Source: a virus | Virus record (IMG/VR): IMGVR_UViG_3300045988_181003 | Span: 336,902 to 400,901 of that record | Strand: one strand, 5' to 3' | DNA: 64,000 nucleotides | In this document: piece after piece, positions 4,091-43,823 of the stretch | Layout: every line of letters begins with the position of its first letter | Position numbering within the stretch: position 1 is the first letter of the stretch | Notes under the pieces: model-generated | The model's database searches: none | Seen by the model: only the letters and a program-made list of their open reading frames with translations | Told to the model about the DNA's origin: nothing | Translations under genes and position numbers: made by a program

Positions 4091-4091
4091 A

Positions 4092-4370: not shown

Positions 4371-4395
4371 GAGGGCAATGCCCTCTTTATTTTTC
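4371..4395 (+). terminator. rho-independent terminator after infA
   Basis: GC hairpin gagggcAATgccctc followed by TTTATTTTT. Confidence 0.7.
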
Positions 4396-4435
4396 CTCTT
4401 AAAGCCTTATACATGAAATATAAATAAATTAAAAT

Positions 4436-5652: not shown

Positions 5653-5672
5653 TCCTATACTTTTATATTTTT

Positions 5673-7850: not shown

Positions 7851-7867
7851 AAAATTAAATTTATTTA

Positions 7868-8446: not shown

Positions 8447-8532
8447 AACTTATATATTTATTAATTACATAGATAAGTATATCATGGTCTGGGGGATGTA
8501 AAAACCTTAATAGTGTATTAAATATTTAAAAT
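8447..8532. promoter_or_regulatory. divergent intergenic region, presumed promoters for leftward and rightward gene blocks
   Basis: strand switch between minus gene starting at 8446 and plus gene starting at 8533; AT-rich. Confidence 0.3.
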
Positions 8533-12480: not shown

Positions 12481-12676
12481 AATTCCTAATATTAGTTGGG
12501 GACACATCTGTACCTCGCTAATGGTTACATCAATATTAATGGGATTATATGTTATTATATTTCATTTTTCAGAACTTTCAATTATAGTTAATATTTTAAT
12601 AGTGTTATCTATAATTGTTTCAGTGTTCATTTGTGTTGAAATTATAAAAGAAATGAAAAAGAGGAAGGATGTTTAA
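12467..12676 (+). CDS. small membrane protein
   Basis: 69 codons, two hydrophobic helices. Confidence 0.35.
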   Translation: MKKIKIPNISWGHICTSLMVTSILMGLYVIIFHFSELSIIVNILIVLSIIVSVFICVEIIKEMKKRKDV

Positions 12677-13175
12677 TAGTGTAACATGTTTTCTTAGAAA
12701 AGTAACTAAGGAAGCAATCTTAGAATTATTGGAATTGGGATATACAACTGATAAATATCCACTTGATGAAAACCTACAGAATAACAAAGAATTTGGAATA
12801 GCAACTTCAGTTTGTGGAACTTTTTCAATTATTAGAGTTGAGCTTTTCGATTCCAAAGATCCTCATACTACATGGAATTGTGCGGGTCGTATTGATTGTA
12901 AAGATAATGCAGAATTATTCTTATCACTATGTTCGATTAAGGATGATACTGACAAAGGATCATTATTCTGTTTACCTACATCTTTAATGAAAGATCAAGA
13001 TGGAATTCTTATGAAAGATCTTTGGAGAATTAGTTTTATCAAATGTCAATATGATACTTGGGAAGAACAATGTAGGTTTTGTGAAGAAAATAATATTAAG
13101 TTAAAAACTAAAAATCCAGCTCGTGACTTTCATAAAGCAACAGTATCGGATTTATTATTAAAATATGAGTTATGA
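12669..13175 (+). CDS. hypothetical protein
   Basis: 168-codon ORF. Confidence 0.4.
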   Translation: MFNSVTCFLRKVTKEAILELLELGYTTDKYPLDENLQNNKEFGIATSVCGTFSIIRVELFDSKDPHTTWNCAGRIDCKDNAELFLSLCSIKDDTDKGSLFCLPTSLMKDQDGILMKDLWRISFIKCQYDTWEEQCRFCEENNIKLKTKNPARDFHKATVSDLLLKYEL

Positions 13176-13396
13176 TAGGTTCAGTAATAGCAGCAATAGC
13201 AAATGAACTGGGTAAATATCCAGATATTGATTCTCAAAAGAAAGTATTAGAGTCATTCCTAGAAGTTTTAGGAGAGGTTTATGAAGTATCAACTATGTTA
13301 ATCATGATAGATAAGATGAAATCTTTAAATGATTTTCTAAAATTTTCTGAGATTTTAAATTATAAGGCAGAGATTCTTAAACAGTTTGATTTTTAA
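13172..13396 (+). CDS. hypothetical protein
   Basis: 74-codon ORF with ATGA start/stop overlap with upstream gene. Confidence 0.35.
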   Translation: MIGSVIAAIANELGKYPDIDSQKKVLESFLEVLGEVYEVSTMLIMIDKMKSLNDFLKFSEILNYKAEILKQFDF

Positions 13397-13600
13397 TGAA
13401 CTGATATAATCGCCTGAAAGCCTTATATATGTATGAAAATAAAGAAAAATAAAATTATGAAAGATAAATTTAAGCAGTTGGAATGGAAATATCGATTGAA
13501 ATTCCTCCCGAAGTAATATTCGGGGTTTTCTACTTAGAATAGTCATATAGATAAATGATTATTTTAGGTAGAAAACAGGATTAAATTTCAGAATTTTATA

Positions 13601-13640
13601 AAATAAAAAAGCGTGGCTTAGTGCCACGCTAATTTTTTTG
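13601..13640. terminator. bidirectional rho-independent terminator at convergent junction
   Basis: A-run, hairpin gcgtggcTTAGTgccacgc, T-run. Confidence 0.7.
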
Positions 13641-13644
13641 TTCT

Positions 13645-13917
13645 TTAAAGCATAAAAATTAATACTAAAGAAATCAGAATTCCTCCTAAGAATCCACCTA
13701 TTGTTGTTATACAACAATTAGGCCATTCACAACTGTTTCTATATAGTATTTCTTTATACTTTAAAAGTAGGATCGTAGTAATTGCACATATGAGGTGTCC
13801 TAATAATGTATCAATTAATATTGCAATTATTCCTATGATAATTCCACCAATTAGGTGTTTACTGAAGTTACCAGTATATATCCAATTGAAGAATTTTTTA
13901 AACCTATTACTAATCAT
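13645..13917 (-). CDS. small two-helix membrane protein (holin-like topology, unproven)
   Basis: 90 codons, two long hydrophobic segments. Confidence 0.4.
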   Translation of the reverse strand: MISNRFKKFFNWIYTGNFSKHLIGGIIIGIIAILIDTLLGHLICAITTILLLKYKEILYRNSCEWPNCCITTIGGFLGGILISLVLIFML

Positions 13918-13920
13918 GGT

Positions 13921-14020
13921 AATATCAGTTTTATAAAGCGGTTCTCCTACTACGTCCTATTCGTTCGTGCCCGCTGCGCTACTCACAAGGACTACGTAAC
14001 GGAGAACTAACGGCTGCGCC
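13921..14020 (-). other. GC-rich structured element immediately 3' of VR1 (candidate DGR homing hairpin/cruciform)
   Basis: about 100 nt of high GC in AT-rich genome; inverted repeats gttctcc/ggagaac and gtcc..tac/gta..ggac; direct repeat cgctgcgc x2; absent from the equivalent position of the paralogous VR2 locus. Confidence 0.4.
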
Positions 14021-16852
14021 TTACGCTAGCGCTACTTGTAGGGAGGCGGCAGAGTAGCGGGTCGAAGCCGACTGGGAGGGGTTGCCATACCAGGCACGAG
14101 CCGAAGCGGCACTCCAGTTAGCGTGACCTCTACCACGCATACTAGCACGGACCTTTGATCCCCGGGTGTTGAACCAGCCAGAAGCGTCATAGTTAACAGC
14201 ATACGAACAAGCTCCTGTCGTCATAGTACCGCCACCTTTGGCAGTTGGAACTGGAGTGTAGGGAAAATATTCTTTTACCCAACCTTCGCCATTTCTAATT
14301 CCAGTTCCTACTTTTTCATAGATATATTCGAAATCAAACTTAGATCCGTCTGTATTAGTAATTGCAGTTGTATAAGTCAGATCTTTTTGTCTAGTGCATA
14401 GATAAGCAGTAAATGGATTAACATATTTACTTCCATCTGTTGTCGGAGTTTCAACATCTACCACTACTTCACAACCAGCGTATCCATAATCAAATACATC
14501 TCCCCAAAAAACTTCTCCATCAATAACTGGAATCTGTAATACTACTTGAACTAGTACACTTGATTCCACTGCAGTAGCTGAATCTCTTGTAGTAAATCCC
14601 TTCACTTCTGTCTCTGGGTAAATTTTAACAAGTTTGGCGTTCATGTCTGGGCCGTCTAGGAGAGTAGCCGCTTTAGTAACATTAGTATACTTATAAGTCT
14701 CTTCATCCCAGTAAAATATAGTATCTGGTTGGATTCCACATTCTACTGCTAAGGATAATGCCATCTGTGATTCTAAGGTTCTTTCTTTTGGTGCTTCTCC
14801 ATTAGCTACTACAGTAACTCGTTTATCATTAGATATAGCTGCTGAAGCACTACTAGATGAATAATAATACAAACATATACCATCACTATTTTTCAGTCCC
14901 GTCGATGATGAGTTATAACCCTGAGACATGAGACTATAATAGTAAGTGCTAGATTCTGCATTTTCTCTTAATCTCATTCCAGTTACTGTTCCCCAGTTAC
15001 CAGCATTTACTCCAACATTACTACTAATTCCATGTCCCCAATAAGTTCCAAGATTATATGTTCCATATTTTACAAAATCAGCATATAATCTGCTCATCTT
15101 GTGGAAACACATTCCTTCAGAACAAGGTAATGGAGATGTAGTATTTTTATTCTTTGCTCTGGCTTTCTGCATAGTAGTAATAGCATTCTGATTATAGGTA
15201 GGATAAGCATAACCGGCTCTATTGAATATATCAAAATCTGGGTATTTAGATTTATCTAATCCATATCTAGGTAATGAATATCCAGCTGAACCAGCACCAG
15301 ATTTACAATAAATTGATCTTAATTTACTATTTATTTGAGTTGGTAAACCTGGACAACCACCAGTAGGATCAACTAGTTTTGCTAGAATTCCATCATAATA
15401 GGTTTCTTTCTCAAAGAAGGCAAATATCTCTTGTCCCCTTCTTCCTTTTTCTCCTCCTATTATCCATATCGGTTTAGTCCATCCACATACTATATCATAA
15501 CCTTTATCAATAGTCTCCCACGGTCTTCTACAATATACTTCAGTACCAGAGGCATTATATAAAGGAGTAGGTTTGGACAATCCAGCTCCACCATAAGTTG
15601 TCCACCATGTATTTGGGTCATATGATCCAGCAGCAAATGCTAAATTTTGTCCAGACGTATCAGTATAAAGTGCTACACTAGATGCGTTATACTGAGCTTC
15701 TGATATAACAACTGTAGGAGCCCATTGACCATTAGTAAATCTTAGCCAATTGTTTTTCTGTAATTCCCCAACTATTTTGGCTTTCTCACCATCACTAACA
15801 TCAATTAAGTAAAAACCTTTAGAATTAATTATTTTTAAACTTCCAGTCTCTTGAACATCAGCATCTGGTGATAAACCAGGTCTGTTCCATTCAGCATATT
15901 CTTTATACCCCAAAGATTCTTTCATCTCATTAGTTTTCCTAGAAGCTTCATCAAGTATTTCAGCATCTCTTCTAATCATTTCGGATGTTACTAATTTAAC
16001 AACAAAATCTATATCTTTGCGAGTGCTGTATCTTATATATTTAGTTCCTTCTGGGAGCTGTGAGTATGGAATAAATCTTTCAACGTTAGATTGATCTGAA
16101 TAAGGAATTATTTGAGCTATGAATGTATAGTTTTTATCATATGCATTCATTAATGAGTATTTTTCGCCAGCATCAGAAGTATAATACTTTAGTTTATTAC
16201 TATAAATACTAGTATTTTTGGGGACAAAGATAAAAGATGACGTAATATATTTATTAAGAGTATTTAATACAGTAGTACCATCACTTTGTAGTAAAGAATT
16301 AGTTGTTTTACAATTACTGTAGTCAACCTCAGAATATGCTCCTATCTCTGTCCACTCAAAAGATCCACTAGTTATTTCATCTCCTCGAAATTCATGCCAA
16401 AGACCTAAAGAATCTTTGAATTTTATTGTACATCCATCAGTTAGAGTTGCTATAGTTTCATAATCTACCACAGCAGTTGTTATATCTGGATAAGATTTTC
16501 CCATTAGCTGGGTAATATTTACAGAACTTTCATAGATACTTTTTCGTTCCTCATTTATTTCTGGAGTAGGAATTTTTACTAATCCATTTTCATCTGGACC
16601 ATATGTTACTCCTCGATAAATTATTTTAGAAATATTACCAGATGCATGGAATTCAATATATCCTGTTATTTTATTATCAGAACTTATCTCAGTTGCTGAG
16701 TATATTTTTTTTGTTTCTTTTACATAAAACAACATTCCAATCCAAGGATATGGTATTTCAGATATTTTTGCAATTGTATCTATAACAACTCTTAAGTCTA
16801 ATGGTTCATTATGTAATGAAGGAATTAGTGCTCCTTCTATATTTTCTAACAT
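14021..16852 (-). CDS. tail fibre / receptor-binding protein, DGR target 1 (C-terminal variable repeat)
   Basis: 943 codons; N-terminal approx. 60 aa shared with two other large fibre proteins; conserved central motifs (IVGELQKNNW, GYDIV.GW, LEGPDMNA, FEGIYEK); C-terminus ...MRGRGHANWSAASARAWYGNPSQSASTRYSAASLQVALA encoded by VR1. Confidence 0.8.
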   Translation of the reverse strand: MLENIEGALIPSLHNEPLDLRVVIDTIAKISEIPYPWIGMLFYVKETKKIYSATEISSDNKITGYIEFHASGNISKIIYRGVTYGPDENGLVKIPTPEINEERKSIYESSVNITQLMGKSYPDITTAVVDYETIATLTDGCTIKFKDSLGLWHEFRGDEITSGSFEWTEIGAYSEVDYSNCKTTNSLLQSDGTTVLNTLNKYITSSFIFVPKNTSIYSNKLKYYTSDAGEKYSLMNAYDKNYTFIAQIIPYSDQSNVERFIPYSQLPEGTKYIRYSTRKDIDFVVKLVTSEMIRRDAEILDEASRKTNEMKESLGYKEYAEWNRPGLSPDADVQETGSLKIINSKGFYLIDVSDGEKAKIVGELQKNNWLRFTNGQWAPTVVISEAQYNASSVALYTDTSGQNLAFAAGSYDPNTWWTTYGGAGLSKPTPLYNASGTEVYCRRPWETIDKGYDIVCGWTKPIWIIGGEKGRRGQEIFAFFEKETYYDGILAKLVDPTGGCPGLPTQINSKLRSIYCKSGAGSAGYSLPRYGLDKSKYPDFDIFNRAGYAYPTYNQNAITTMQKARAKNKNTTSPLPCSEGMCFHKMSRLYADFVKYGTYNLGTYWGHGISSNVGVNAGNWGTVTGMRLRENAESSTYYYSLMSQGYNSSSTGLKNSDGICLYYYSSSSASAAISNDKRVTVVANGEAPKERTLESQMALSLAVECGIQPDTIFYWDEETYKYTNVTKAATLLDGPDMNAKLVKIYPETEVKGFTTRDSATAVESSVLVQVVLQIPVIDGEVFWGDVFDYGYAGCEVVVDVETPTTDGSKYVNPFTAYLCTRQKDLTYTTAITNTDGSKFDFEYIYEKVGTGIRNGEGWVKEYFPYTPVPTAKGGGTMTTGACSYAVNYDASGWFNTRGSKVRASMRGRGHANWSAASARAWYGNPSQSASTRYSAASLQVALA
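14041..14130 (-). repeat. DGR variable repeat VR1
   Basis: approx. 90-nt match to TR (27931-28020); all 15 mismatches fall at TR adenines (coding strand), AAC codons in TR replaced by CAC/GCC/CCC/ACC/TAC etc.; 3' IMH-like gccgcctccc identical to TR. Confidence 0.85.
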
Positions 16853-16895: not shown

Positions 16896-19508
16896 TCACA
16901 CCAATGCTACTTGTAGGGACGCAGAATAGGCGCGGTACGAAAGTGACTGGGAGTTTGGGCTGAACCAGTAACGCGCCGAAGAGGTTTTCCAAGTAGAAGC
17001 ACCCCTACCACGCATAGAGGCTCTGATTTTCCGGCCTGCTACAGAAAACACAGTATCTCCGTAATTATCATAGTTAATTGAATATGCACAGGAACCAGTA
17101 TATAACGTTCCACCTTTGGTAACTGGAACAATTGAATATGGGAACAGATTTTTAGAGTATGCTTCACCATCTCTGATTCCTTCACCTATTTTCTCATAAA
17201 TTCCCTCAAATCCAAATCCACCACCAGATGTATATGAAGAATTCAAATACATTAATTTTTCTTGTGATGTACATAGATAGGCAATAAATGGGTTTGTATA
17301 TCTATGAATCCCACTAGATGTTGGTGTAACTACATCAACTACTACCTCAAGTCCTGCATAACCATAATCAAATATATCTCCCCAGAGCACCATACCATCA
17401 CACACTGGCCATTGTAATTTCATCTGACCCGTTACCGCCACTTTATTAGTAGTTCCCTTTTCATAAGGTTCACCTGAGAAATCTGTCCATTTAAATAAAC
17501 GAGCATTCATGTCTGGTCCTTCTAGGAGAGTATGTAAGTTGGGGATATTAGTATACTTATAAGTCTCTTCATCCCAAGTAAATTTTGTTTCTGGTTCAAT
17601 TTCTTTTTCTACTGCCCAAGATAAAGCCATTTGAGCTTCGAGTGTTCTACTTTTAGGATGTTCTAGATTTATCCAATAATTCCAGTTATATCCACTAGTA
17701 GATCCAGAAACTCCTGAAAAATTAGGATTATCTGCAAAAGTATGATGTAATAAATCTCCATTATTTATAGTAAATCTTATCCCACTTCCTCCTGAGCATT
17801 TATCCCAAGTGGTGGAATTGGGAGTTATATTTGAACTGATCCCTGGTCCCCACAAAGAATCTTGGTGAAGATCATATCGTAGATATTTAATATATCTAGA
17901 ATAAATATGACTCAATTTATGAAATCCCATTCCCTCACAAACTGGCATACTAGATTGAGTATCACCAATATTTCTTGCTCTGGCTGATGTCATAGTAGAT
18001 AATTGAGAAACATCTGTTTTTGGGTAGGCTCTATTTGTTCGCTGAATGTCAAAAATACTATTTTGACCAGCCGACATAGATCCACCGGTGTCTTTTATAT
18101 AGATACATCGTAAAGTATTCTTATAATAAGTTGGTAGATCTAAACAATACCCCGTTGGACTCACTTCTTTGCTTAAAAATCCATTATAATATGTTGGATT
18201 ACTGAAGAAACCAAATAAAGTATTCCCTGAGGAATCAAATTCTCCACCTAACATCCATATAGTTTTCTTCCACCCTATCACTATATCATAACCGAGATCT
18301 TTACTCTCCCAAGGTTTTCTAACATATACCTTAGCACCGGATATATTATATAAAGGCTGTTCAGCTTTATTATTTTTTAACCACCAATCAGTTGCATCAA
18401 AATTACCAACTGAATAAGCTAAATTTGTATGAGTTGGGTCAGCATATAGATCAACATTGGTTGCATCATAGTCTGAATCAGTTATAACAACCGTTGGTGC
18501 ATAACTACCGTCTGTGAATTTAAAGAGATTATTTTTCTGTAATTCACCAACTATCCTAACTCTATTTTTTCCAGAGGTATCCTGATGAATATGGACTAAA
18601 TATATTCCTTCTTCATTAGCAATTTCTCTATTCCCTACATTATAAGATGCTCTAGGTGATAGATTATTGGTTTTCCAAGAAGCAATTTCTTTATGTCCAA
18701 CTTGTTTATATGCCTCATCTACTTTTTCAGATAAATCAAGTATTTTTTCAGATAAATCTGCTTTAGCATTAAGAGAAAATATTTTAAGGGATAATGAATT
18801 ATATTTTTCATTATTATTTATAGAAAAATATACAGTTCCCTCAGGTCTATCAGATGGTTTTATTATTCTAGAATCTAATCCTGCTGTGCCGGATGTGAAT
18901 GCACTAATAAAATTATAATCTTTATCAAAATAAACTATTCTAGGGTCTGATGCACTAGTATAGGTTCGACAATAGATATAATCATTAGTTCCAATATGAA
19001 CAAAATAAGTTGAATGAAGGTCAGCTGATGTTGCATTATTCCCTGCTGAAGTATAAAATGTTCCAGTGTTATATTTAATATCACTATAACTTACCTCACA
19101 ATATTCACTAAAATTCAACCACTTAGTTCCATCCCAAAGATATTCTTGCCAACCAAGTGTAGAATCTTTATATTTTAAAATCAATCCATCTGAATAACCA
19201 TCAGCCGATTCATCATTATCAGCCTGAAATCGATAAGTCTCTACTCCACTAAGTCTAGTCATTGCAGTTGTTATTGTAACCTCTTCTGCATTTTGTAAAC
19301 CAGGCAGAGTATTATCATCATATACTGGATAAGGATATACAAGTTCTTCATCCCCAGACAAAGAAGATGGAAATAATTTCTCATAATTATTTAATTTCAT
19401 GATAATCTTATCTCCATCTTCACTTAATCTAGGAACTAAGTGTAATCCCTCCAGTACTTCCTGAGATACTTCTGATAGTTTCTCAATTGGAAATACAATA
19501 TATTTCAT
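16896..19508 (-). CDS. tail fibre / receptor-binding protein paralog, carries diverged variable repeat (VR2)
   Basis: 870 codons; shares central motifs and C-terminal RASMRGRG...SASLQVALV with the 943-aa paralog. Confidence 0.8.
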   Translation of the reverse strand: MKYIVFPIEKLSEVSQEVLEGLHLVPRLSEDGDKIIMKLNNYEKLFPSSLSGDEELVYPYPVYDDNTLPGLQNAEEVTITTAMTRLSGVETYRFQADNDESADGYSDGLILKYKDSTLGWQEYLWDGTKWLNFSEYCEVSYSDIKYNTGTFYTSAGNNATSADLHSTYFVHIGTNDYIYCRTYTSASDPRIVYFDKDYNFISAFTSGTAGLDSRIIKPSDRPEGTVYFSINNNEKYNSLSLKIFSLNAKADLSEKILDLSEKVDEAYKQVGHKEIASWKTNNLSPRASYNVGNREIANEEGIYLVHIHQDTSGKNRVRIVGELQKNNLFKFTDGSYAPTVVITDSDYDATNVDLYADPTHTNLAYSVGNFDATDWWLKNNKAEQPLYNISGAKVYVRKPWESKDLGYDIVIGWKKTIWMLGGEFDSSGNTLFGFFSNPTYYNGFLSKEVSPTGYCLDLPTYYKNTLRCIYIKDTGGSMSAGQNSIFDIQRTNRAYPKTDVSQLSTMTSARARNIGDTQSSMPVCEGMGFHKLSHIYSRYIKYLRYDLHQDSLWGPGISSNITPNSTTWDKCSGGSGIRFTINNGDLLHHTFADNPNFSGVSGSTSGYNWNYWINLEHPKSRTLEAQMALSWAVEKEIEPETKFTWDEETYKYTNIPNLHTLLEGPDMNARLFKWTDFSGEPYEKGTTNKVAVTGQMKLQWPVCDGMVLWGDIFDYGYAGLEVVVDVVTPTSSGIHRYTNPFIAYLCTSQEKLMYLNSSYTSGGGFGFEGIYEKIGEGIRDGEAYSKNLFPYSIVPVTKGGTLYTGSCAYSINYDNYGDTVFSVAGRKIRASMRGRGASTWKTSSARYWFSPNSQSLSYRAYSASLQVALV
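16911..17010 (-). repeat. diverged DGR variable repeat VR2 (possibly decayed or served by another TR)
   Basis: aligns codon-by-codon to TR; every TR AAC/AAT codon is substituted, but about a dozen additional non-adenine mismatches and 3 mismatches in the IMH-like 3' end. Confidence 0.55.
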
Positions 19509-20919: not shown

Positions 20920-23900
20920 CTAATCGTTCTTAATTAAAGTATTATTAGATATCGAAGTCTCATTATCAACCGAAGAGATAACTACATTTTTCTTAAATAG
21001 TTTATTCCCTAGATCAATAATTCCATCTTGTTCCATTAAGTTTCGTATCATTCCTATTGATAATGGATCAATTGTTTTGGACCACAACATTTCTTTGTAG
21101 AATACCATTTTTCGATAAACATTATTCCATTCACCAAATGCAATGCCTTTTGTATCAGTATTTGTACCAACTATAAGATTACTTCCATTATAGTTTGTTT
21201 TAGTACAATATTGGATTTCATCAGTACAGCTTAATGTATTAGCCTGACCAAAATTATATTGTTGAATAACAGTAGATGATGTAATATAACTCTGTATGAA
21301 TGCTCCCCCACCAGTTTTTAATGAACCTTTATGTTGAATAGCACTATAAATAGCAGGATCTCCTATATCTTTATATTTAATAATATATGTATAATCTGTA
21401 AACTCAGGGATATAATTACAATTAATATAATCATCAATACCATCAAGTACTAAACCACTAGGATATTCAGGCTGTATTTCAATCCTAACTCCTTCGGTAC
21501 TTTCATTATTAATCAAAGTTATATTCATACCAATCCAAACAGTAGCCGGAGTTTCCTCTTTCACTTGTATTGGAACACTGGCTGGGAGTTCATGTATACC
21601 ATTACTATTTATAGTAATAAAACTATTATTCGAGGTATTATCGGCGGATACATAATAATATCTTATTGATTCTCCAGTTTTTAAACCATTAACTTTTATA
21701 TTAAATGAAGGAATAGTAATACTATAACTACCATTAACATCATTAACATAACTGTAAAATAAAGCAAAAGTAGGATGTTCAACTTTATAAATAGTAATGC
21801 TGTTCGAAGTTAATCCATAACTCCATGCGTTACCATCATTTGTTCTTAAATTTATCCAGGTCTTATTAGCACCTAATACAACAGGATAACCCTTATATCC
21901 AGACATTCCCTCATAAGAGAAATTTACACATCTAAGATACATATTATCTTGACTAACCCCAGATTGTTTGCGAACCTGCTCTAAAATATTTACTCTAGAA
22001 TCTCCTTCATCATTAGTTTTGCCATATACATCCCAATAGTATTCTGGTTTTTCTACATATCCCTCCGATGTTCCTAACCATTCACATAGTATTTCTCTAT
22101 CAGAATTACTAGGTACTTCTGGGAGTACAACAGTTCGATACATAGCAAATTGTGAAAAATTACTTCCACCAACTGTTGAACCAAATACTGGAGATACTGT
22201 ATTACTACTGTTGTCAGTTTCACAGATCGTCTCAAATACATGAGTTTTTGCATATAGTTCTGCCGTAGTTATATATTTATTCAAAACTGAATCTATGTAA
22301 GTATATCCATCTTGATTTCTAGTTTGATAAGCTGGGAATTTAGATACTTCAGAATCACTTGGTATATAAACACAAAGTCCAGTATAACTTACAGTTTTTC
22401 TTTGATCGTATAAGACAGTTCCTTTTCTTTGCCAATTAGTTTTCATACCAAGATATTTTCCACCATAAGCAATATTCTCAACAGTTCCTCTATCATCCAC
22501 ACCATCAAAACAAAGTGCTCCAGTGTATTCAGGTTGAACTTCTATAGTAATGTTACAGTCATAATGTCCAATATTTTTTAAATCAACTGCACTAAATCCA
22601 ACCCATATATTTTCATCAGTTAAATTATCAGTTCCTGCATATGATTTAGGAAGTGTATAAGTCCCATCTTCGGATATCTGAATTGTCTGTTTTGTTGTAG
22701 AAGTTTCAGAATCAATATATGCATATCTAATTCCAAAATCTCCACTCAGTCCTCGTACTTTTACTTTAAAAGATGGGATCTCTTTATTATACTCAGTTAA
22801 AACTCCTTCTGATTTTATATAACTATGTAATAGTGCAATATTAAAACTTATTTTGGTTATACTAATATAATTACTGTGATATTCAGCCATAAATGATTCA
22901 CTATTGTTGGGTCTAATAGTTAACCAAGTTTTATTGGCTCCAAACACTACTGGGTAACCATCTTTTCCACTTATACCTTCATAGGTGAAATTATTGAGTT
23001 TAAGATGTCTCCCCTGACCAGTTAAATCCGGAAGATAGCCTAGGTTACTTAAACCAGTATTATTTATTATATCTGGGTCATACATAAATAAAGCTTCTGG
23101 TGTAGATAATTTCCATTTACATTTGACTGACCAGTTAAGTGTGTTATTTTTTTCTACAACTGCATATTTAATAGATTCATCTGAACCAAATCGATTTCCA
23201 TTAAAATATAATGCTCCTACTATTGTATAGAAATTTGATAATAGATTTTCAAAATTCAGGTATTTAATTCTACTTCCTATTTTTATCTTATCACCATAAG
23301 TATATTCATGAGTTCCATCTTCATTTTTAAAATGAATTACAGTTGGATATGGTTGAAGAATATCTTCATATCTGATATATTCATCAATTGTAATATCTAT
23401 TCTTTGTGGTGATCTAGTAACAGCTAATATAAATCTCCAGTATTGTGCATCAACATTTCCTTTAGTCATTTCCTCTCCATTAAGAGTGACTTTCGAGATT
23501 TCATCGGTTTCATTAGTTGTAGCAATATTAATCTGAACTCTAGTTCCAATTGGTATATAATCACCAACTAGAATTGGATTACCAGTAGAAACATTAAAAT
23601 ATAGAATTCTTTTGTATGGAATATTACTTTCTACTATAGGTTTCCACTGAATCATCCCCGGATATAATGTTCCAAGTTTAAGCTTCTTCAGTTGTCGTTC
23701 TATCAAGAACTCAGACATTGAATATGGATATAGCAAGAAAGACCAGATAGCAACTTTAGAAAATCTTGTATCATTATCTCTTAGAGTTCCCATCCACATT
23801 GAACTTTGATCTATACCGCTTCCTAATGTTAAATTAGCTGAATAATTGTATTGATATTTTGTTTGTACAACAATTCCTCTTTCCGTTATTTTCGAATTTG

Positions 23901-25746
23901 ATATGTTAGTGTTATTTTTACCAAATGTCCAAGTTTGGATAATTCCATCTGTAGGAGACTGGCTTTGTTCTAAGATGAATGCTCCTTGATCACCAGTGGC
24001 TGCTTTTGAAACAATACCTCCACTGTCTATCATAAAATTCAAAAATTTTCTATCAGCCACCACAGTATAGTCCTTCAAAACAGGAAGACCAGTTGTCTTG
24101 CCGAAATCATCAACCCCATTCAAGCATAGGGTGTTCTCTATGTCATCAATAGGAAGTACTGTAACCTTAACATTAACACTTTCGTTATATTTACTTATAC
24201 ACCAACCACTATAAGCTGCTTCTTCAGTTTGCGGAGTAGCAGGAATGTCGTATATACCATCTTCTAATATATCTACATAAGTAGTTACAGAAGCAGTAGT
24301 ATTTATTCTCCATTTAAGATTTCCTTCTGTAATAGTAGAAACACCTTCAATCTTAACTTTATAAGTAGGTAAAACTTTATTTTTAGTATTAACTTCTAAT
24401 AAATTAGCAGTACTAGTATTAGAAGTAATAATGAAATTGTCTTTATTTACTATTACATTACCTCTATCAGGAAGATAAGTGTAATCTTTAAAACTAATAG
24501 GATAATTACCTATACCACTTTGTTTCTCCCAAGCAATATTGTTCAATTGCATATCATATCCATGACCAGATAAATCTACTAATTTATCACTAAAATCAGA
24601 GTGATTATCATTGGTAATTCCTTGTTGGGATATATTATAATATACCTGAGGAGTTATACATCGATCTAGGTTATAATATTCTATTATAAGATGTATTTCA
24701 TTCTCTGTCAGTACTCTATCAGCAATAATTGTCCAATACCAGGCTACTTGTGATAATTCTGCCAGATTACCATTTGATGAATTCTTATAACCAACTACAC
24801 TATAAATGTCGTTAGTCTGATGTGTTCCACCTTGAGAAACATAATCTTCTTTATCACCAAGAAGTTTTACAGAATTAGGAACAGTTGGTGAAACTTTTAG
24901 ATTAGGACAAGTGTATCCATATATCCCCGTTTTTCCAGTATTTCCTTTTGCTACAATATTTCTGGTACACATTAATGATGAATTATATCTGATATTATTT
25001 ATAGAATTACTAAAAGATTCTCCTTCTATATCAGATATTTGAGTAATCATTGATATGACAGTTACTTTTCCACTGTTTCCTATAATTGAATCTAGAGTTT
25101 TATCTGAATAAATAAAATCATCTATACCATCTGTTACTAATGCACAAGGATAGTCTGGATTGCCATATCCAGAATTGGGTGTATATGAAAACCCTGATAA
25201 TACTAGATTATTTCCATTTCCAGATATGTCTGATATAATATCTCTATCTGAATCTTGATTTGTCTTTCCAAATGCAGTACAAACCATTTTGATAGAGTTT
25301 TTAAGATCACTAGATAAAGTTTTTCCTAAAAAATCTCTAAGATCATTTTCAGCTGTATAGAAATTATTATATAGTTTTCCCTCTTTTTCTTTAGTTATAT
25401 TTATCTTTTGAGAATTTCTTAATTCTTTAGACTCATAAATATATCTAGAATCATCTGGTATAGTAATTACATTAGAATCAGTAACTTTAATTATCTCATC
25501 ATTGATTGTAACTGATTCTGCTCCAACTGAAGTAAACAATTCATAATCTTTAACTCCACTTAAATCATCAGTTAAAGAAGTAATTGTATAATAATAACCT
25601 GTATCAAGACAATAAAATATTCCACCGATATCTGGATTTAGAATAGTATTTACCTCTGATAAGGTTTGTATTCTATCTCGAACATCTAGCGGCTGATTAT
25701 TTTGTAACTCAATACCACTAGATGTTATAATTTGTTTATTACTCAT
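20920..25746 (-). CDS. very large tail fibre / structural protein with internally repeated domains
   Basis: 1608 codons; N-terminus homologous to N-termini of the 943- and 909-aa fibre proteins; repeated modules (GYPVV.GANKTW..., IE.QPEY...LDG.DD). Confidence 0.7.
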   Translation of the reverse strand: MSNKQIITSSGIELQNNQPLDVRDRIQTLSEVNTILNPDIGGIFYCLDTGYYYTITSLTDDLSGVKDYELFTSVGAESVTINDEIIKVTDSNVITIPDDSRYIYESKELRNSQKINITKEKEGKLYNNFYTAENDLRDFLGKTLSSDLKNSIKMVCTAFGKTNQDSDRDIISDISGNGNNLVLSGFSYTPNSGYGNPDYPCALVTDGIDDFIYSDKTLDSIIGNSGKVTVISMITQISDIEGESFSNSINNIRYNSSLMCTRNIVAKGNTGKTGIYGYTCPNLKVSPTVPNSVKLLGDKEDYVSQGGTHQTNDIYSVVGYKNSSNGNLAELSQVAWYWTIIADRVLTENEIHLIIEYYNLDRCITPQVYYNISQQGITNDNHSDFSDKLVDLSGHGYDMQLNNIAWEKQSGIGNYPISFKDYTYLPDRGNVIVNKDNFIITSNTSTANLLEVNTKNKVLPTYKVKIEGVSTITEGNLKWRINTTASVTTYVDILEDGIYDIPATPQTEEAAYSGWCISKYNESVNVKVTVLPIDDIENTLCLNGVDDFGKTTGLPVLKDYTVVADRKFLNFMIDSGGIVSKAATGDQGAFILEQSQSPTDGIIQTWTFGKNNTNISNSKITERGIVVQTKYQYNYSANLTLGSGIDQSSMWMGTLRDNDTRFSKVAIWSFLLYPYSMSEFLIERQLKKLKLGTLYPGMIQWKPIVESNIPYKRILYFNVSTGNPILVGDYIPIGTRVQINIATTNETDEISKVTLNGEEMTKGNVDAQYWRFILAVTRSPQRIDITIDEYIRYEDILQPYPTVIHFKNEDGTHEYTYGDKIKIGSRIKYLNFENLLSNFYTIVGALYFNGNRFGSDESIKYAVVEKNNTLNWSVKCKWKLSTPEALFMYDPDIINNTGLSNLGYLPDLTGQGRHLKLNNFTYEGISGKDGYPVVFGANKTWLTIRPNNSESFMAEYHSNYISITKISFNIALLHSYIKSEGVLTEYNKEIPSFKVKVRGLSGDFGIRYAYIDSETSTTKQTIQISEDGTYTLPKSYAGTDNLTDENIWVGFSAVDLKNIGHYDCNITIEVQPEYTGALCFDGVDDRGTVENIAYGGKYLGMKTNWQRKGTVLYDQRKTVSYTGLCVYIPSDSEVSKFPAYQTRNQDGYTYIDSVLNKYITTAELYAKTHVFETICETDNSSNTVSPVFGSTVGGSNFSQFAMYRTVVLPEVPSNSDREILCEWLGTSEGYVEKPEYYWDVYGKTNDEGDSRVNILEQVRKQSGVSQDNMYLRCVNFSYEGMSGYKGYPVVLGANKTWINLRTNDGNAWSYGLTSNSITIYKVEHPTFALFYSYVNDVNGSYSITIPSFNIKVNGLKTGESIRYYYVSADNTSNNSFITINSNGIHELPASVPIQVKEETPATVWIGMNITLINNESTEGVRIEIQPEYPSGLVLDGIDDYINCNYIPEFTDYTYIIKYKDIGDPAIYSAIQHKGSLKTGGGAFIQSYITSSTVIQQYNFGQANTLSCTDEIQYCTKTNYNGSNLIVGTNTDTKGIAFGEWNNVYRKMVFYKEMLWSKTIDPLSIGMIRNLMEQDGIIDLGNKLFKKNVVISSVDNETSISNNTLIKND

Positions 25747-26224
25747 CTCCCTTCCATCCTATTTCTTTTAATCCAGCTTTAACCCATTTAACAAAAGTAT
25801 CATGAGCTGTAATTTCTGGATCACTTGGATCTGTGAATCTTTTTCTATTAATAGCTTCTATTTCTCCATCTTCAGCAGAAAACTCTTGACGGATAGCTGC
25901 GTTAATTAATCTACCATAGGTAACAGGTTTTTTGCAAACAATTGAATAAGCATAGTCAATCTCCTTTTCATGACTAACTGGATTTTCTTCATCTAGAATT
26001 TCACTAGTTGTAATAGTTTCTCTAGTATGTTTTATAAAAACTTGTTTAGAAGAACCAAGATCAATTTCCACTACCTTATCATCTAAAAATTTAACTAATT
26101 TAAGATCTTTTTCACTCCAATTTTCTTTGATTGTTTCTGGAGTATCTATTGGCTGCATTGCCAAATCTTGAATACTTTTAATCATGATTTTAAATATTTT
26201 CGTTATTATTAATACTTGAATCAC
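25739..26224 (-). CDS. hypothetical protein immediately 3' of DGR reverse transcriptase (possible accessory factor; not Avd-like)
   Basis: 161 codons overlapping RT 3' end by 35 nt; acidic, so unlike basic Avd. Confidence 0.45.
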   Translation of the reverse strand: MIQVLIITKIFKIMIKSIQDLAMQPIDTPETIKENWSEKDLKLVKFLDDKVVEIDLGSSKQVFIKHTRETITTSEILDEENPVSHEKEIDYAYSIVCKKPVTYGRLINAAIRQEFSAEDGEIEAINRKRFTDPSDPEITAHDTFVKWVKAGLKEIGWKGDE

Positions 26225-27719
26225 TATCTTTATAATATCCCAAAGAGTTATTAGTTAATGTTGGGAAATATTTAGATAGTTCACTCTCTTGTACTTCTTC
26301 TAAGTATTCAACAGAGTCTTTAAAAATTATACCACCATCATCCTCAAGAACTAAGTGTTCTAGTGGAAAATATGTTTTCTGACGTTCTTCAAAACTGATA
26401 CCCATTTGTTTTGCTTCGAATGCTATCTGTTTATCAAGTTTAGATAGAAATTCGAATATATATTTATATCCACCCTTAACTTTAAATACTTTGTAGGTTG
26501 GATATTCTGGTTTAAATGGATTAGCTACTGGTTTAGAAACTTTTATTCCTAAAATCATACATACCCAAGGACTAGATTTTTTATCTGGTTCTCTTAATTC
26601 ATAACTAATTAGTATCAATTCTTTTCCAAGAACTGCTTTCACGTCTTTGCATGGAACGTTTACTGTTCCCTCTCTAACTTTTAGAGTCTTTGCAATATTT
26701 CTAAAGTCCAAATCTTTAATATTATTTGTTAATACTTTCCAGAGATTTATAGTATCAGCATGACAAATTAATCCAAAATATGATGCCATAGATTCTCTAG
26801 ATTTTTCTATTCTCTTTTTTGCTCTTTTCTTCAATGTTTTTCTAACTGTGGTATATCCTTTTCCATGATGATTTTTAGTTTGTTCTGATCTATGAAAAAC
26901 ATAACCACCTATGTCTACTGGAACTCGAACTGGACATAATTTAATATTTTTCTTAAGTCTATATTGAAGTTCCCTCTTAAGATATATTTTTACAAACTCC
27001 AGAACTTTTTTGGCTCCTTCTTTTGTCTTACAACCAATAAATACATCATCTGCATATCTATGATAGCTCACTACATCTGGAAATTTTTCTAAGATTAAGT
27101 GATCAAACTCAAGCATAATGATATGATGATTAGTTGGACTGAGTGGTGTTCCAATTGGTAATCCTTTATTACACATTGAGACTTTTCTAAGATGTTTTAA
27201 AAGAAGAGGATCTTTGAATAATCTTTCATGTGCTTTCCACATTACTTCTGGTTTTGTCGATCCATAACAATTTTTTATGTCTAACTTTAAATACCACTGC
27301 ATTTCATGTTTTTCATAAAAATCATGTTTTAATTTATGGACCATTGAATATCTCTTATTACTGGATGTTATTCCTCGCCCAGGTATACAATTATATACAT
27401 TGTCTACAATATACTTCTCAAATCTGGGTCGAATCAAGAGGAGTATAACATGCATCACAATTCTCCATTCTAACGAACAACAAGATATTTGTCTAACTTT
27501 ACCAGTAAATGATACTTTTGTTAATGGCGAATAAACTATTGAATGTTTAAGGTAGAATTCTGATTTTATTCTATCATAGATAATATCTACATTATGTTGT
27601 AGGTTTTTCTTAAAATTAATTACATCTCTATGATGAATTTTAGATTTTAAAGCATTAAGTGTTGCTTGGAGTACTAAATCTTTAGTTATAGTACACCATA
27701 AGTTTCCCTGTCTTTTCAT
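26190..27719 (-). CDS. DGR reverse transcriptase with approx. 180-aa C-terminal extension
   Basis: YADD catalytic motif (SYHRYADDVFIGC), GLPIGTPLSP motif-4 (bRT-like GLPIG), GRG motif, basic thumb; located just 3' of an AAC-rich template repeat that matches VR1. Confidence 0.85.
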   Translation of the reverse strand: MKRQGNLWCTITKDLVLQATLNALKSKIHHRDVINFKKNLQHNVDIIYDRIKSEFYLKHSIVYSPLTKVSFTGKVRQISCCSLEWRIVMHVILLLIRPRFEKYIVDNVYNCIPGRGITSSNKRYSMVHKLKHDFYEKHEMQWYLKLDIKNCYGSTKPEVMWKAHERLFKDPLLLKHLRKVSMCNKGLPIGTPLSPTNHHIIMLEFDHLILEKFPDVVSYHRYADDVFIGCKTKEGAKKVLEFVKIYLKRELQYRLKKNIKLCPVRVPVDIGGYVFHRSEQTKNHHGKGYTTVRKTLKKRAKKRIEKSRESMASYFGLICHADTINLWKVLTNNIKDLDFRNIAKTLKVREGTVNVPCKDVKAVLGKELILISYELREPDKKSSPWVCMILGIKVSKPVANPFKPEYPTYKVFKVKGGYKYIFEFLSKLDKQIAFEAKQMGISFEERQKTYFPLEHLVLEDDGGIIFKDSVEYLEEVQESELSKYFPTLTNNSLGYYKDSDSSINNNENI

Positions 27720-27930
27720 TTGTCCTAATCATTTATTTTTTTTTTCGACCAGGCTGTCTCAGCTTTCGAAATGATTTCTCATCCTACTAACAAAGATCCG
27801 TATCTCGCCTTTTTATATATACGGAGTGTCTTGATATTTTTTGGAACTTCCCCAAGGTTTACCTGGTGTTTCTCTCACCATCCACGGCTCGAAAGTCTGA
27901 ATGGATTTAGAAAATCAACAGGTCATAAAA
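27720..27930 (-). ncRNA. non-coding spacer between TR and RT start (candidate DGR RNA spacer/priming region)
   Basis: 210 nt without ORF between TR 3' end and RT start codon, same strand; by analogy with Bordetella DGR RNA where the spacer primes cDNA synthesis. Confidence 0.3.
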
Positions 27931-28020
27931 GGGAGGCGGCATAGTTGCGGTTCGAATTCGACTGGGAGTTGTTGCCATTCCAGTTACGAGCCGAATCGTT
28001 ACTCCAGTTAGCGTTACCTC
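27931..28020 (-). repeat. DGR template repeat (TR)
   Basis: non-coding (in-frame stop) repeat; sense strand encodes ...GNANWSNDSARNWNGNNSQSNSNRNYAASL with 9 AAC/AAT codons; VR1 differs only at these adenines. Confidence 0.85.
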
Positions 28021-28059
28021 AAAACCAAGTAAACCTATTCTAAATATTTCTATTTAGTT

Positions 28060-28146: not shown

Positions 28147-30876
28147 TTATTTTAATTTTATTTGAAAATATCCACAAAGAGGTACTGCATATTCTGCACA
28201 AGTACTAAATACAGATCTAAATGTAGCTTTAGCACCAGCATCTGGACTAGTATCTTTGATTGTTGGATATACAAGTTTTTTCTTACCTACATCAGTATTA
28301 GATTCACCCCAACCAGAACCTACATTTGGACAACAGGCAACTGAAAATAAACATTCTCCATTTGTATAAGTACCTCCCATTGTTTTTGGAAAGAGTGTAT
28401 ATGGATATACCTCAGATACACTGTTAGCTTTCTTATCTAGAAGAATATCATCTATTTTCTCATAAATTCCCTCAAATCCATAATATTCATCTGGTCCAAT
28501 AGTTCCATAAGAACTCAGTTCAACTAGATCTTCTTGTTTAGTACATAAATACAATGTAGCTGGATTATCATATATAGTAGTTTTTTCAACTTCTGGTATT
28601 TTATTCATAGTTACCACTGCCTCAAATCCAGTAACATACTGTCGACAAGGCGCTATTCCTATTAATTCTCCATCTAAAATAGGATATTGTATACAAGCCT
28701 CGACAGAATCTAACAAAACTTCCGCTCCAGTTTCGTCTAGAACTTTAAAATTGCTCAAAGAATACTCTTTAAATAGCTGAGCATTCATGTCTGGTCCTTC
28801 TAGAAGTGTTGGTAGATCTTCTATATTTTTATACCAATAAGTAAAACCTAAGTATTGAAATTTAGTATCTGGTTGAATATTATTTTCTACTATCCAAGAT
28901 AATACAATTTGTTGTTCTAGGCAGAGAGTTATATCTGTACTGAGAGAATTAAAAAGAGCAGTTAATACTGGTATCTTAGTTAATGTACTAGAAGTAGCTG
29001 ATGAATATCTATAGAAATCATTTTTTGGAGTATTTCCTGAATATACATAATCCTCTTGACCATTAATTTTATATCTAAAACCTGTCTTAGTTTCCCAATT
29101 GGCAGCACTAGAGTCATAAGCATTAATTATACCTATTCCCCATTTATTCTGTAAATCTTTAGTTCCATATTTTATTAAAGCAGAATAAACATGACTCATC
29201 CAGTGGTACATCATAACAGGTGCTGCCGGAATAAAACCAGTTGAACCTGGATTTTTATTTTTACAATATTGATCACCAGTTATTCTATCGAAGGAATATC
29301 TCCAACACCTACCATTACTAAATCCAGTATATCTATTTAATAGAGTTCCCTCTTGATTAAATATAGCATACCCACTAGCTGGCCAAGAACCGACTGGCAT
29401 TGATTGAGAAAAGAATATAGATCTAGCTGGTGAATTTGATGCGTTTTCGACTGAATATGCTCCAGCACTAATTCCAGTCGGTTCTATTAGTTTAGCTTGA
29501 ACACCTTCATAAAATGTAGGTTTATTAAAAAATCCATAAATTTTTCTACCAGATTCTCCAGTCTCACCACCTATCATCCAAATAGGATCTTTCCAACCAA
29601 TTACTATATCATAACCTTTATCAGTTGTTTCCCAAGGTTGAGTTGGATCAGTTGTTACAACAACCGGGGCATAACTACCATCTGTAAATTTAAACCAATT
29701 GTTTTTCTGTAATTCACCAATTACCTGAACTTTACCAGTACTGCTATCTACGTTAATTAAATAAACCCCCTTCTTATTGATGATATCCATATCTCCAACA
29801 ATAGTCTCTGCCTGTGGATCTAAAGAATTAGGATCCCAAAATGCAGCATTAACTTTAGAGAATTCATTTTCTACCTCCCTTAAATTATCAGAAACTTGTC
29901 TGTATTTAGAGTAATTACTCTGTAAACCCTCCTGACTAAATATTTTAAATTCATTATTTAATGGAGTTGTTAAATCTTTATTAATTTTGAAACAAACCCT
30001 AATGTACTTAGTATTAAAGTCAAGATCTTTTACTTTAATATTTCTTATTACTTTAGAAGGAATAGAACCTGATCCAGAGAATACTGCAAAGTTATCAGTA
30101 TAGTTATAATCTTTATCATAAGTTATTATACCTAACATTCCCTCTGCTAAATATCCATTATAGTATAATTCATCTGATTTATTAACTAAGATATAATCAG
30201 ATAATCCACTATCATTTACTTCTGGTTGAGTTGGATCAGTTTGTAGATTGCCTGAATTGGTTATAGTTCCATTCGTTTCTATATAATATGGATATAGTGG
30301 GATATCAGAGTAATCTATTTCAAAATAATTTCCAATCTCTTTCCATCCAAGAGAAGTATATTGATAATCATGCCAATTATTGTTATGATCTCTAAATCTT
30401 CTAATACAACCTTCTGGGAGTTCTGATTGAACATTATCTTTCCATAATTCATATAATTCAGTATTGGCTTCTTCTGGGGTATTATAAGAGTTCCCAGTAA
30501 TCATAGTTATATTGATTAGGTCAGAATACTGAATTTTCCATTTCAAATCTTTAGATTGAGTTCCTATATTTATATCAAAATTATCATCCAGTGTTTCGAT
30601 TATCTGACCAAATTCAATAGTCTCAATATTTCCTTTTCCTTGGAATATTTCCCACTTAGATACTACTGAATTAGGAAATTCGTGACCAGACACTATTTTT
30701 CCTATTAATTCTGTTACAACATAGTGTTTGTTTTCGTCCTTTACATATACGATTTCACCTTCATATGGGTTAGGGATTGATGTAATCTCACTTAGAGTAT
30801 TAATTCTTTCCCCAACCCTGAAAGGAGTATCAATGGTATTAATCTGTAATGGATCTGTTTTAATAATTTTTGCCAT
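28147..30876 (-). CDS. tail fibre / receptor-binding protein paralog lacking a variable repeat
   Basis: 909 codons; shares N-terminus and central motifs (QVIGELQKNNWFKFTDGSYAPVVV, GYDIVIGW, LEGPDMNAQLFK, FEGIYEKI) with the two VR-bearing paralogs but has an unrelated distal C-terminus. Confidence 0.75.
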   Translation of the reverse strand: MAKIIKTDPLQINTIDTPFRVGERINTLSEITSIPNPYEGEIVYVKDENKHYVVTELIGKIVSGHEFPNSVVSKWEIFQGKGNIETIEFGQIIETLDDNFDINIGTQSKDLKWKIQYSDLINITMITGNSYNTPEEANTELYELWKDNVQSELPEGCIRRFRDHNNNWHDYQYTSLGWKEIGNYFEIDYSDIPLYPYYIETNGTITNSGNLQTDPTQPEVNDSGLSDYILVNKSDELYYNGYLAEGMLGIITYDKDYNYTDNFAVFSGSGSIPSKVIRNIKVKDLDFNTKYIRVCFKINKDLTTPLNNEFKIFSQEGLQSNYSKYRQVSDNLREVENEFSKVNAAFWDPNSLDPQAETIVGDMDIINKKGVYLINVDSSTGKVQVIGELQKNNWFKFTDGSYAPVVVTTDPTQPWETTDKGYDIVIGWKDPIWMIGGETGESGRKIYGFFNKPTFYEGVQAKLIEPTGISAGAYSVENASNSPARSIFFSQSMPVGSWPASGYAIFNQEGTLLNRYTGFSNGRCWRYSFDRITGDQYCKNKNPGSTGFIPAAPVMMYHWMSHVYSALIKYGTKDLQNKWGIGIINAYDSSAANWETKTGFRYKINGQEDYVYSGNTPKNDFYRYSSATSSTLTKIPVLTALFNSLSTDITLCLEQQIVLSWIVENNIQPDTKFQYLGFTYWYKNIEDLPTLLEGPDMNAQLFKEYSLSNFKVLDETGAEVLLDSVEACIQYPILDGELIGIAPCRQYVTGFEAVVTMNKIPEVEKTTIYDNPATLYLCTKQEDLVELSSYGTIGPDEYYGFEGIYEKIDDILLDKKANSVSEVYPYTLFPKTMGGTYTNGECLFSVACCPNVGSGWGESNTDVGKKKLVYPTIKDTSPDAGAKATFRSVFSTCAEYAVPLCGYFQIKLK

Positions 30877-43821: not shown

Positions 43822-43823
43822 AA

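Follow-up and report, generated by a model that had tools for sequence, protein, structure and literature searches.

An adenine-templated diversity-generating retroelement and its distant receptor-binding-type target in a 30% G+C gut element

Can a gene be diversified by a template that lies almost 14 kb away from it? This question is raised by a 64,000-nucleotide (nt) stretch of viral DNA, positions 336,902 to 400,901 of the IMG/VR record IMGVR_UViG_3300045988_181003, hereafter called the window. A sequence-only reading of the window had proposed a diversity-generating retroelement (DGR), made up of a reverse transcriptase (RT) gene, a non-coding template repeat (TR) beside it and a matching variable repeat (VR1) at the 3' end of a remote gene for a 943-amino-acid (aa) protein. 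That reading had also set three checks, that is whether the mismatches between the repeats are confined to TR adenines, whether population variation follows the same positions, and whether the RT falls with DGR RTs or with those of group II introns and retrons. All three favoured the DGR, and we consider it very probable that this element acts by mutagenic retrohoming with VR1 of the 943-aa gene as its target.

By aligning TR (27931-28020, minus strand) read from 28020 to 27931 with VR1 (14041-14130, minus strand) read from 14130 to 14041, we confirmed the coordinates of both repeats and found that they match without any gap over 90 nt. TR is non-coding, contains 25 adenines and has a GC-rich terminus, while VR1 lies in the final 37 codons of the 943-aa gene. 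The mismatches number 14 and not 15 as initially counted, since the fifteenth, T against A at 28022, lies beyond the repeat. As had been claimed, each of them coincides with a TR adenine (9 A>C, 3 A>G and 2 A>T), so that 14 of the 25 adenines present are affected. The chance of such an adenine-only pattern, C(25,14)/C(90,14), is 4.9e-10. The codon changes, described as AAC or AAT turning into CAC, GCC, GCT, CCC, ACC, TAC or TCT, were mostly as listed; two altered codons are nevertheless GAT and TAT, not AAC or AAT, and one AAT became TAT and not TAC. In the frame of the 943-aa open reading frame (ORF), TR would encode GNANWSNDSARNWNGNNSQSNSNRNYAAS, with abundant AAC and AAT codons.

The GC-rich run GCCGCCTCCC is the same at the 3' ends of TR and VR1, again as reported, and the two repeats diverge beyond it, with TTTTATGACC in TR and TACAAGTAGC in the VR. 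This corresponds to an arrangement of the IMH/IMH* type (IMH, initiation of mutagenic homing), in which the shared GCCGCCTCCC is followed by TACAAGTAGC at VR1 and at a second variable repeat, VR2 (16916-17005), and by TTTTATGACC at TR. Scanning both strands of the window for copies of the scaffold returned three only, namely TR, VR1 and VR2. The layout is also that of a DGR, the VR being at the 3' end of its gene and TR ending 211 nt before the adjacent RT begins. Alternatively, TR could be a dead fragment from the 3' end of a paralogue that drifted towards A and came to lie by chance beside an unrelated group II intron or retron RT. A genome of 30% G+C carrying three paralogous genes would suit this history. 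However, drift predicts changes involving T as well and a TR that differs between genomes, whereas the mismatches are at A in 14 cases out of 14, on one strand, and TR is invariant while the coding copies vary. We hold this alternative to be extremely improbable, and the RT, described below, points the same way.

Then, we compared the locus with its relatives, using orthologues from other metagenomes in place of reads; related loci are designated by L numbers. This gave 17 distinct full-length sequences of the 943-aa protein and, at the DNA level, 10 different sequences of VR1 or VR2 drawn from seven genomes. First, the tails of the orthologues follow one pattern, G x A x W S x x S A R x W x G x x S Q S x S x R x x A A S LQVALA, with x standing for variable residues. 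Second, mean column entropy over the 17 orthologues reached 1.92 bits at the 14 codons in which TR has an adenine, compared to 0.018 bits at the 17 other VR codons and 0.12 bits at the remaining 912 columns of the protein. Third, the 10 VR DNA sequences vary at 22 of the 25 adenine positions but at only 3 of the 65 others. These three positions are all two-state, and two of them are the very changes that distinguish the TR of L018. Both data sets thus bear out the expectation that variation is limited to adenine-templated positions.

L018 holds a complete system in a single locus. Its TR has two private changes relative to that of the window, which recur in each of its VRs; against this TR the VRs show 14 and 11 changes, every one at an adenine. 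The TR of L001 is 100% identical to that of the window although the surrounding DNA is about 10% diverged; TR is therefore identical or 2 nt apart in three genomes, next to VRs that vary. In addition, the 1500 nt downstream of VR1 are identical in the window, L014, L018 and L025, yet VR1 itself differs by 16-22% among them. Taken together, these observations indicate that the template is kept while the coding copy is hypervariable, and that diversification is recent relative to the divergence of the flanks. As a separate observation, the VRs of L014 (9782 and 12726), L023 (12729) and L025 (9782 and 12726) have a C at the position corresponding to base 65 of the window TR, which is T. This T>C change affects the third base of an AAT codon, and the TRs of these three genomes themselves probably read AAC.

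The same comparison bears on whether the DGR is now dead in the window genome, with TR, RT and VR1 as relics and the between-genome variation being old. VR2 is clearly decayed there (see below), and L008, L010 and L011, which carry a homologue of the 429-aa gene of the locus (83-87% identical) in another gene neighbourhood, have neither DGR, TR nor target paralogues, so that the cassette has been gained or lost inside the group. On the other hand, the RT ORF is intact, keeps its catalytic motifs and is 97% identical to the RT of L001, and TR has remained unchanged amid DNA that is about 10% diverged. Moreover, VR1 shows zero non-adenine mismatches, at positions that each homing event resets, and its 16-22% difference between genomes stands beside an identical 1.5 kb. 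A dead element is in our view unlikely, and a DGR active on VR1 accounts better for these data.

The RT (509 aa; 26190-27719, minus strand) begins 211 nt downstream of TR on the same strand and carries RYADD and GLPIGTPLSP, in agreement with the sequence-only reading; its features of note are R75, I188 and P194 (the latter two within LPIGTPLSP) and a C-terminal domain spanning about 322-509. In Pfam, it matched RVT_1 only (E = 1.7e-20). Retron RTs ranked first in a single-sequence search of the PDB, and the NCBIfam scores were far below their cut-offs (group II intron RTs, 71.6 with a cut-off of 300; retron St85, 60.8 with one of 235). The nearest database relatives form a small clade of 425-510 aa, and the next tier consists of Bacteroidota RTs of about 317 aa with the canonical DGR motif LPIGN(Y/L)xSQ. 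With a profile built from the long SP-bearing clade alone, the best PDB match was 8ub7_A (E = 2.1e-23), followed by group II intron RTs (9e-17) and named retron RTs (3e-9 or worse). We take 8ub7_A to be the Bordetella phage DGR RT because its residue numbering (R74, I181, Q187) fits. We rejected the top rank of retron and group II intron RTs in single-sequence searches as an artefact of divergence, since the profile searches reverse the order.

Thus, the expectation that the RT is nearer to DGR RTs than to the two other families held in the clade profile (2e-23 versus 9e-17 and 3e-9 or worse), and the profile evidence places it in the DGR RT clade. If an unrelated RT had simply landed beside a drifting fragment, the lead of retron and group II intron RTs in single-sequence searches would be expected. 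Yet the clade profile prefers the DGR RT, no Rfam family, intron and retron RNAs included, reaches its threshold anywhere in the window, and RTs of this group adjoin adenine-templated TR/VR pairs in four other lineages. These lineages, in which a TR lies directly upstream of an extended RT and a VR is present, are L002, L019, L021 (RTs respectively 35%, 49% and 30% identical to that of the window) and the phage crAssE-Sib, considered at the end. In all four, VR differences are almost all at TR adenines, the exceptions being one non-adenine mismatch in L002 and one G-for-A in L019. No Avd-family gene was found among the genes of these four loci, and the RT motif of L021 ends in AQ instead of SP. 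The extra C-terminal domain (about 180 aa, from about residue 322) is conserved within the RT clade and has no relative in the PDB or Pfam. Directly after the RT comes a 161-aa ORF (25739-26224, minus strand), a candidate accessory gene by synteny, as an ORF of 148-161 aa sits directly 3' of the RT in all close relatives and in L019 and L020 (RT 49% identical). It had no match in Pfam, PHROG, NCBIfam or the PDB, and nothing in it is Avd-like.

When TR and the spacer were folded alone, the result was no better than for shuffled sequence, and helices appeared only in a comparative analysis, for which we aligned the window lineage with L019 and L020. In this alignment, conservation of TR is about 85%, and conserved islands also occur in the 3' part of the DGR RNA, the spacer that separates TR from RT (27720-27930, minus strand). 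First, a 13-bp duplex joins the sequence just 5' of TR (28024-28036, minus strand, AGGTTTACTTGGT) to a segment of the spacer (27855-27867, minus strand, ACCAGGTAAACCT), with 6 of the 13 pairs changing on both sides. Second, this duplex is directly followed by a 4-bp stem-loop (27842-27854) with one compensatory pair, and then by a run of adenosines (27837-27841), the latter being a sequence observation only. Third, a 7-bp hairpin pairs 27819-27825 with 27797-27803 (one compensatory pair), these elements all lying on the minus strand as well. In the RNA consensus, 99% of the cells are paired and 8 pairs are compensatory; none of 500 shuffles scored as high, and slid controls gave at most 1. Furthermore, in L002 (z = -4.4) and crAssE-Sib, duplex prediction likewise paired the 5' flank of TR with the spacer, through helices of unrelated sequence, and by eye the L002 duplex is followed by a short stem-loop and then AAAA. 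Scans with Rfam and for tRNAs, promoters and terminators gave nothing informative.

This order of elements matches the cPRT Stop (cPRT, cis-primed reverse transcription) of the Bordetella phage DGR RNA, in which a duplex between upstream sequence and spacer is accompanied by a stem-loop and adenosines (Handa et al. 2024, bioRxiv 10.1101/2023.10.23.563531). The cPRT Stop duplex averages 13 bp over 207 DGRs, is needed for cis-primed reverse transcription and ends the cDNA (10.1101/2023.10.23.563531). A similar role would fit here because the window duplex begins 4 nt upstream of the TR/VR homology boundary. The DGR of the window, which has no Avd, thus appears to keep the RNA logic of the cPRT Stop.

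VR2 (16916-17005, minus strand) forms the 3' end of an 870-aa paralogue of the target (16896-19508), and the cassette order given in the sequence-only reading implied that it is a second live target. In the window genome this does not hold, as VR2 differs from TR by 30 mismatches, 14 of them at non-adenines. Its GC-rich run is degenerate (TCTGCGTCCC, 3 changes) and an 83-nt core found downstream of VR1 is deleted. VR2 of L016 and L017 is identical to that of the window except for 1 nt, though their VR1 differs from the window's; another decayed allele, in L023 and L024, differs from TR at 12 non-adenine positions. By contrast, in L014, L018 and L025, VR2 is a clean adenine-only derivative of TR. 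VR2 is decayed in the window genome and is not a current target there; it is a fossil.

Could both paralogues nonetheless be live in the window genome, with the non-adenine changes of VR2 arising from non-canonical mutagenesis or from another TR in the remainder of a genome of about 400 kb? In favour of this, some DGR targets are reported to carry non-adenine substitutions (Wu et al. 2018, PMC5758913). Moreover, CCCTACAAGTAGC still follows the repeat in VR2, and VR2 is a clean target in sister genomes. But a live VR2 should not stay the same bar 1 nt in the window, L016 and L017 while VR1 differs, nor does its state, with three changes in the GC-rich run and the 83-nt core gone, favour current use, and no second TR-like sequence was found on either strand of the 64-kb window. 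We judge two live targets to be very unlikely, and keep VR1 as the live target of the window DGR.

The deletion in VR2 draws attention to the sequence that follows VR1. This post-VR element (13940-14040, minus strand) is 101 nt long and consists of TACAAGTAGC, the 83-nt segment (13948-14030) and GGAGAACC. It has about 57% G+C in a genome of 30% G+C and includes the last 6 codons of the target as well as its stop. After VR1 and the active VR2 copies (L014, L018), it differs by at most 1 base and is almost invariant between genomes, and in the decayed VR2 alleles ATTGGTGTGAAAAAT replaces the 83-nt core. Each live VR is succeeded by this 101-nt stretch, and none of the nine distinct VRs with the element has more than one non-adenine mismatch to a lineage TR. 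An exact 32-mer of the element is absent from the IMG/VR and GTDB genomes. We regard the post-VR element as a candidate for an extended IMH or a target-recognition element, a proposal that rests on correlation. As a side observation, VR2 of L001 (20638-20727) carries the two 3'-end changes of the L018-type TR, though L001 itself has a window-type TR. The flanks of this VR2 combine two allele types, L014/L018 upstream and the window downstream, which suggests a recent recombination between genomes within or beside the VR.

What protein is being diversified? The target gene (14021-16852, minus strand) encodes a 943-aa protein of receptor-binding or tail-fibre type. It belongs to no Pfam or PHROG family, and neither an FGE-sulfatase nor any other Pfam domain was detected in it or in the 8 family members tested. 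Word-indexed searches gave only 5 homologues; the family emerged with an exhaustive HMMER search, which yielded at least 361 cluster representatives, 176 of them at E <= 1e-30. The members share a C-terminal module of about 630 aa, with variable N-termini, and a tail scaffold ...GEC.Y...NYW......R.R...RFRG.A....CSPR.......S......GGSAQVLL. A single-sequence AlphaFold model of the target tail was unusable (predicted local distance difference test, pLDDT, of 29), and we repeated the modelling with an alignment of 94 sequences, obtaining a pLDDT of 88.7 and a predicted template modelling score (pTM) of 0.85 for the last 334 aa. Among solved structures, the C-terminal model is most similar to a DGR variable protein with a C-type-lectin fold, although the match is moderate. 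Foldseek found nothing for the tail model in the PDB, and BFVD gave a myovirus 'Receptor binding complex' (E = 7e-14) and a crAss-like phage protein. The C-type-lectin-like fold that had been expected agrees with the best solved match but is missed by Foldseek against the PDB. The best reading of these models, of moderate strength, is that the target may end in a divergent C-type-lectin-like receptor-binding tip.

Along the minus strand, the genes follow the order predicted from sequence alone: a 909-aa paralogue, TR, RT, the 161-aa ORF, a 1608-aa gene, a 429-aa gene, the 870-aa gene (VR2) and the 943-aa gene (VR1). The target is indeed not adjacent to TR and RT, the live VR being 13.8 kb away with five genes in between. 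The 909-aa paralogue (28147-30876, minus strand), immediately upstream of TR, has no VR: it is homologous to the targets through to its end, but its tail (...FRSVFSTCAEYAVPLCGYFQIKLK) is not diversified and ends in GYFQIKLK. It occupies the position that the target has in L002, L021 and crAssE-Sib. Other lineages (P0144, P0148, P0178) share this type of tail without a VR, which argues for a stable subfamily and not merely a decayed copy. The simplest history is that the target gene was duplicated and that the live VRs are now on the downstream copies. As to the 1608-aa gene (20920-25746, minus strand) between RT and targets, it has no family match and its size differs greatly among close relatives (1253 + 312 aa in L001, 1579 in L014, 782 in L018, 1582 + 773 in L025); a modular protein of a fibre or tail is one possibility.

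From these observations we infer the following course, in which cDNA synthesis, its priming, homing, the role of the post-VR element and a function in host recognition are all proposed. A non-coding RNA containing TR would be transcribed from the minus strand, from about 28036 past 27797. Pairing of its segment immediately 5' of TR with the spacer would give the 13-bp duplex, followed by the stem-loop and the adenosine run. The 509-aa RT would then copy TR into cDNA, faithfully at U, C and G but with misincorporation opposite A. This cDNA would replace VR1 13.8 kb away, probably guided by the shared GC-rich end and the post-VR sequence. In this way, up to 14 codons, 12 of which are highly variable among orthologues, would be randomised on a putative C-type-lectin-like tip, altering what the phage binds.

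Several observations weigh against this reading. First, the DGR RT signature motif is [I/V/L]GxxxSQ (Handa et al., PMC7826257), and the window RT departs from it: IGTPLSP keeps the Ile but has Pro for Gln. Second, no match to an accessory protein (Avd, HRDC, MSL or CH1) was obtained with Pfam, PHROG, NCBIfam or the PDB among the small ORFs around the cassette, nor was any found among the genes called in related loci. Third, only two lineages in effect were aligned to obtain the RNA covariation, and for two more the support is duplex prediction. Fourth, VR2 of L001 lacks the 83-nt core and yet has only 0-2 non-adenine mismatches, which leaves the link between core and activity correlative. Fifth, the post-VR element is no more stable when folded than shuffled sequence (z = +0.76) and contains a single inverted repeat, of 7 nt. 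Finally, the differences between metagenomes record past diversification and not the present activity of the window genome.

Two of these points are eased by known systems. In the Bordetella RT, R74 and I181 promote adenine mutagenesis, whereas the Q187P substitution leaves misincorporation as before (PMC7826257). The window RT has R75 and I188 at the positions of R74 and I181, and P194 at that of Q187. The SQ ending is thus typical of DGRs but evidently dispensable, because SP occurs in epsilon crAss-like DGR RTs and Q187P is neutral. Likewise, an accessory gene is not a defining feature of DGRs, since 75 of 372 have none (PMC5758913). A more daring possibility, which we put forward tentatively and think somewhat unlikely, is that the RT C-terminal domain (about 115-185 aa in the clade) replaces Avd, so that a single polypeptide would hold the RNA, and that the 101-nt post-VR sequence, in place of a short IMH plus hairpin, directs homing to targets 11-14 kb away. 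If so, loss of the 83-nt core followed by decay in certain VR2 copies would amount to a natural knock-out in favour of the post-VR sequence as the homing determinant.

Regarding the element that hosts this DGR, the contigs bearing the locus are 300-405 kb long with about 30% G+C and represent an AT-rich gut element. Genes near the DGR (2519-13917 in the window; also near it in L014, L016 and L018) encode RtcB, an IF1/eIF-1A-like protein and a ClpB_D2-small/AAA ATPase (5673-7850). No terminase or capsid gene was found within the 64-kb window; the element is likely a huge phage. We ruled out the 'Hodor' megaplasmids by their G+C content (45-47% versus 30%). Other genes of this element caught our attention. 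The RtcB RNA-ligase gene (11164-12480, plus strand) is one 438-aa ORF in the window, and in L016 (14381-15957), L017 and L023 (14381-15957) it appears as ORFs of 292 and 178 aa about 160 nt apart, which could be due to an intron, a frameshift or an indel. On the minus strand, we also noticed a MoxR-like AAA ATPase paired with a VWA/CoxE protein (42130-45344), a 705-aa SPFH/Band-7 protein (53231-55348) and an NMT1-type periplasmic-binding domain fused to OmpA (59119-60678), all of which are unusual phage cargo.

The locus is an ordinary system in principle and an unusually clean natural data set. It provides a very clean natural example of a DGR, with a fixed template and 12 hypervariable codons that differ in nearly every sampled metagenome. 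It also extends the Avd-less GxxxSP subtype from crAss-like phages of 150 kb to an unrelated gut element of about 400 kb. Two leads come from the sister genomes: the cPRT-Stop RNA architecture seems to be retained in an Avd-less DGR, and VR2 copies without the 83-nt segment no longer diversify, L001 being the exception, which points to a target-site determinant. Such a determinant may be of use in engineering DGRs for distant targets.

How does the window system compare with known ones? By tblastn with the RT against GenBank phages, a single record spans the whole protein, that of phage crAssE-Sib (OR575929.1), whose DGR is the nearest described system and in which the depositors annotated VR, IMH, TR and IMH* but no Avd. 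Its RT is 31% identical over 477 aa, including the C-terminal extension, and reads LPIGTPTSP where the window has LPIGTPLSP. Its target shows 30% identity over 642 aa (E = 5e-60), and the VR scaffold closes a C-terminal module of about 620 aa; among the GenBank phages, crAssE-Sib alone has a member of the target family. Babkin et al. (Viruses 2024, PMC11054128) described GxxxSP as unexpected in the DGR RT of an epsilon crAss-like phage and its receptor-binding protein as 'unusual'. They also reported that myDGR misses GxxxSP DGRs (PMC11054128), and such DGRs are therefore probably under-counted. TR lies directly upstream of the RT in both systems. However, target (VR), TR and RT are adjacent in crAssE-Sib, whereas in the window a VR-less paralogue sits beside TR and the live VR is found 13.8 kb downstream, past five genes. 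Unlike crAssE-Sib, the window lineage has a second paralogous VR, live in some relatives and decayed in the window genome. The crAssE-Sib genome is also smaller (151 kb, against 300-405 kb for window-type contigs), and the two share no detectable DNA similarity.

The DGR of Bordetella phage BPP-1 (Mtd/Avd/TR/bRT) has in common with the window an adenine-specific transfer from TR to a VR at the 3' end of a receptor-binding gene, a GC-rich shared end followed by divergence between IMH and IMH*, and an RNA in which the upstream-to-spacer duplex, stem-loop and adenosines of the cPRT Stop have their likeness. Its RT is the closest solved relative of the window RT, in which the equivalents of R74 and I181 are kept. 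In contrast to BPP-1, the window has no Avd, SP instead of SQ, an additional RT C-terminal domain of about 180 aa and a non-adjacent target, and a conserved GC-rich stretch of 101 nt follows the VR instead of a strong GC-rich hairpin. As for variable proteins with a C-type-lectin fold, TaqVP of Thermus aquaticus (PDB 5VF4), AvpA (5IOO) and Mtd (1YU0) have only 9-16% sequence identity to the target, and the FGE-sulfatase C-type-lectin-fold domain reported in many DGR targets has no Pfam match in it.

In the survey of Wu et al. (NAR 2018, PMC5758913), 75 of 372 DGRs have no accessory gene (compare its Architecture A and its Lineage 3), about 20% of DGR RTs have a C-terminal extension of up to about 150 aa, and 45 of 372 DGRs have non-adjacent targets, which in phages lie within 50 kb. 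Each of these three traits is present in the window; the SP motif is not described in that survey. Taken one by one, no unusual trait of the window system is new, because Wu et al. and crAssE-Sib had already documented them. Judged by its motifs and homologies, the window system belongs to the described Avd-less IGxxxSP subtype with an RT C-terminal extension, which was first described in crAssE-Sib.

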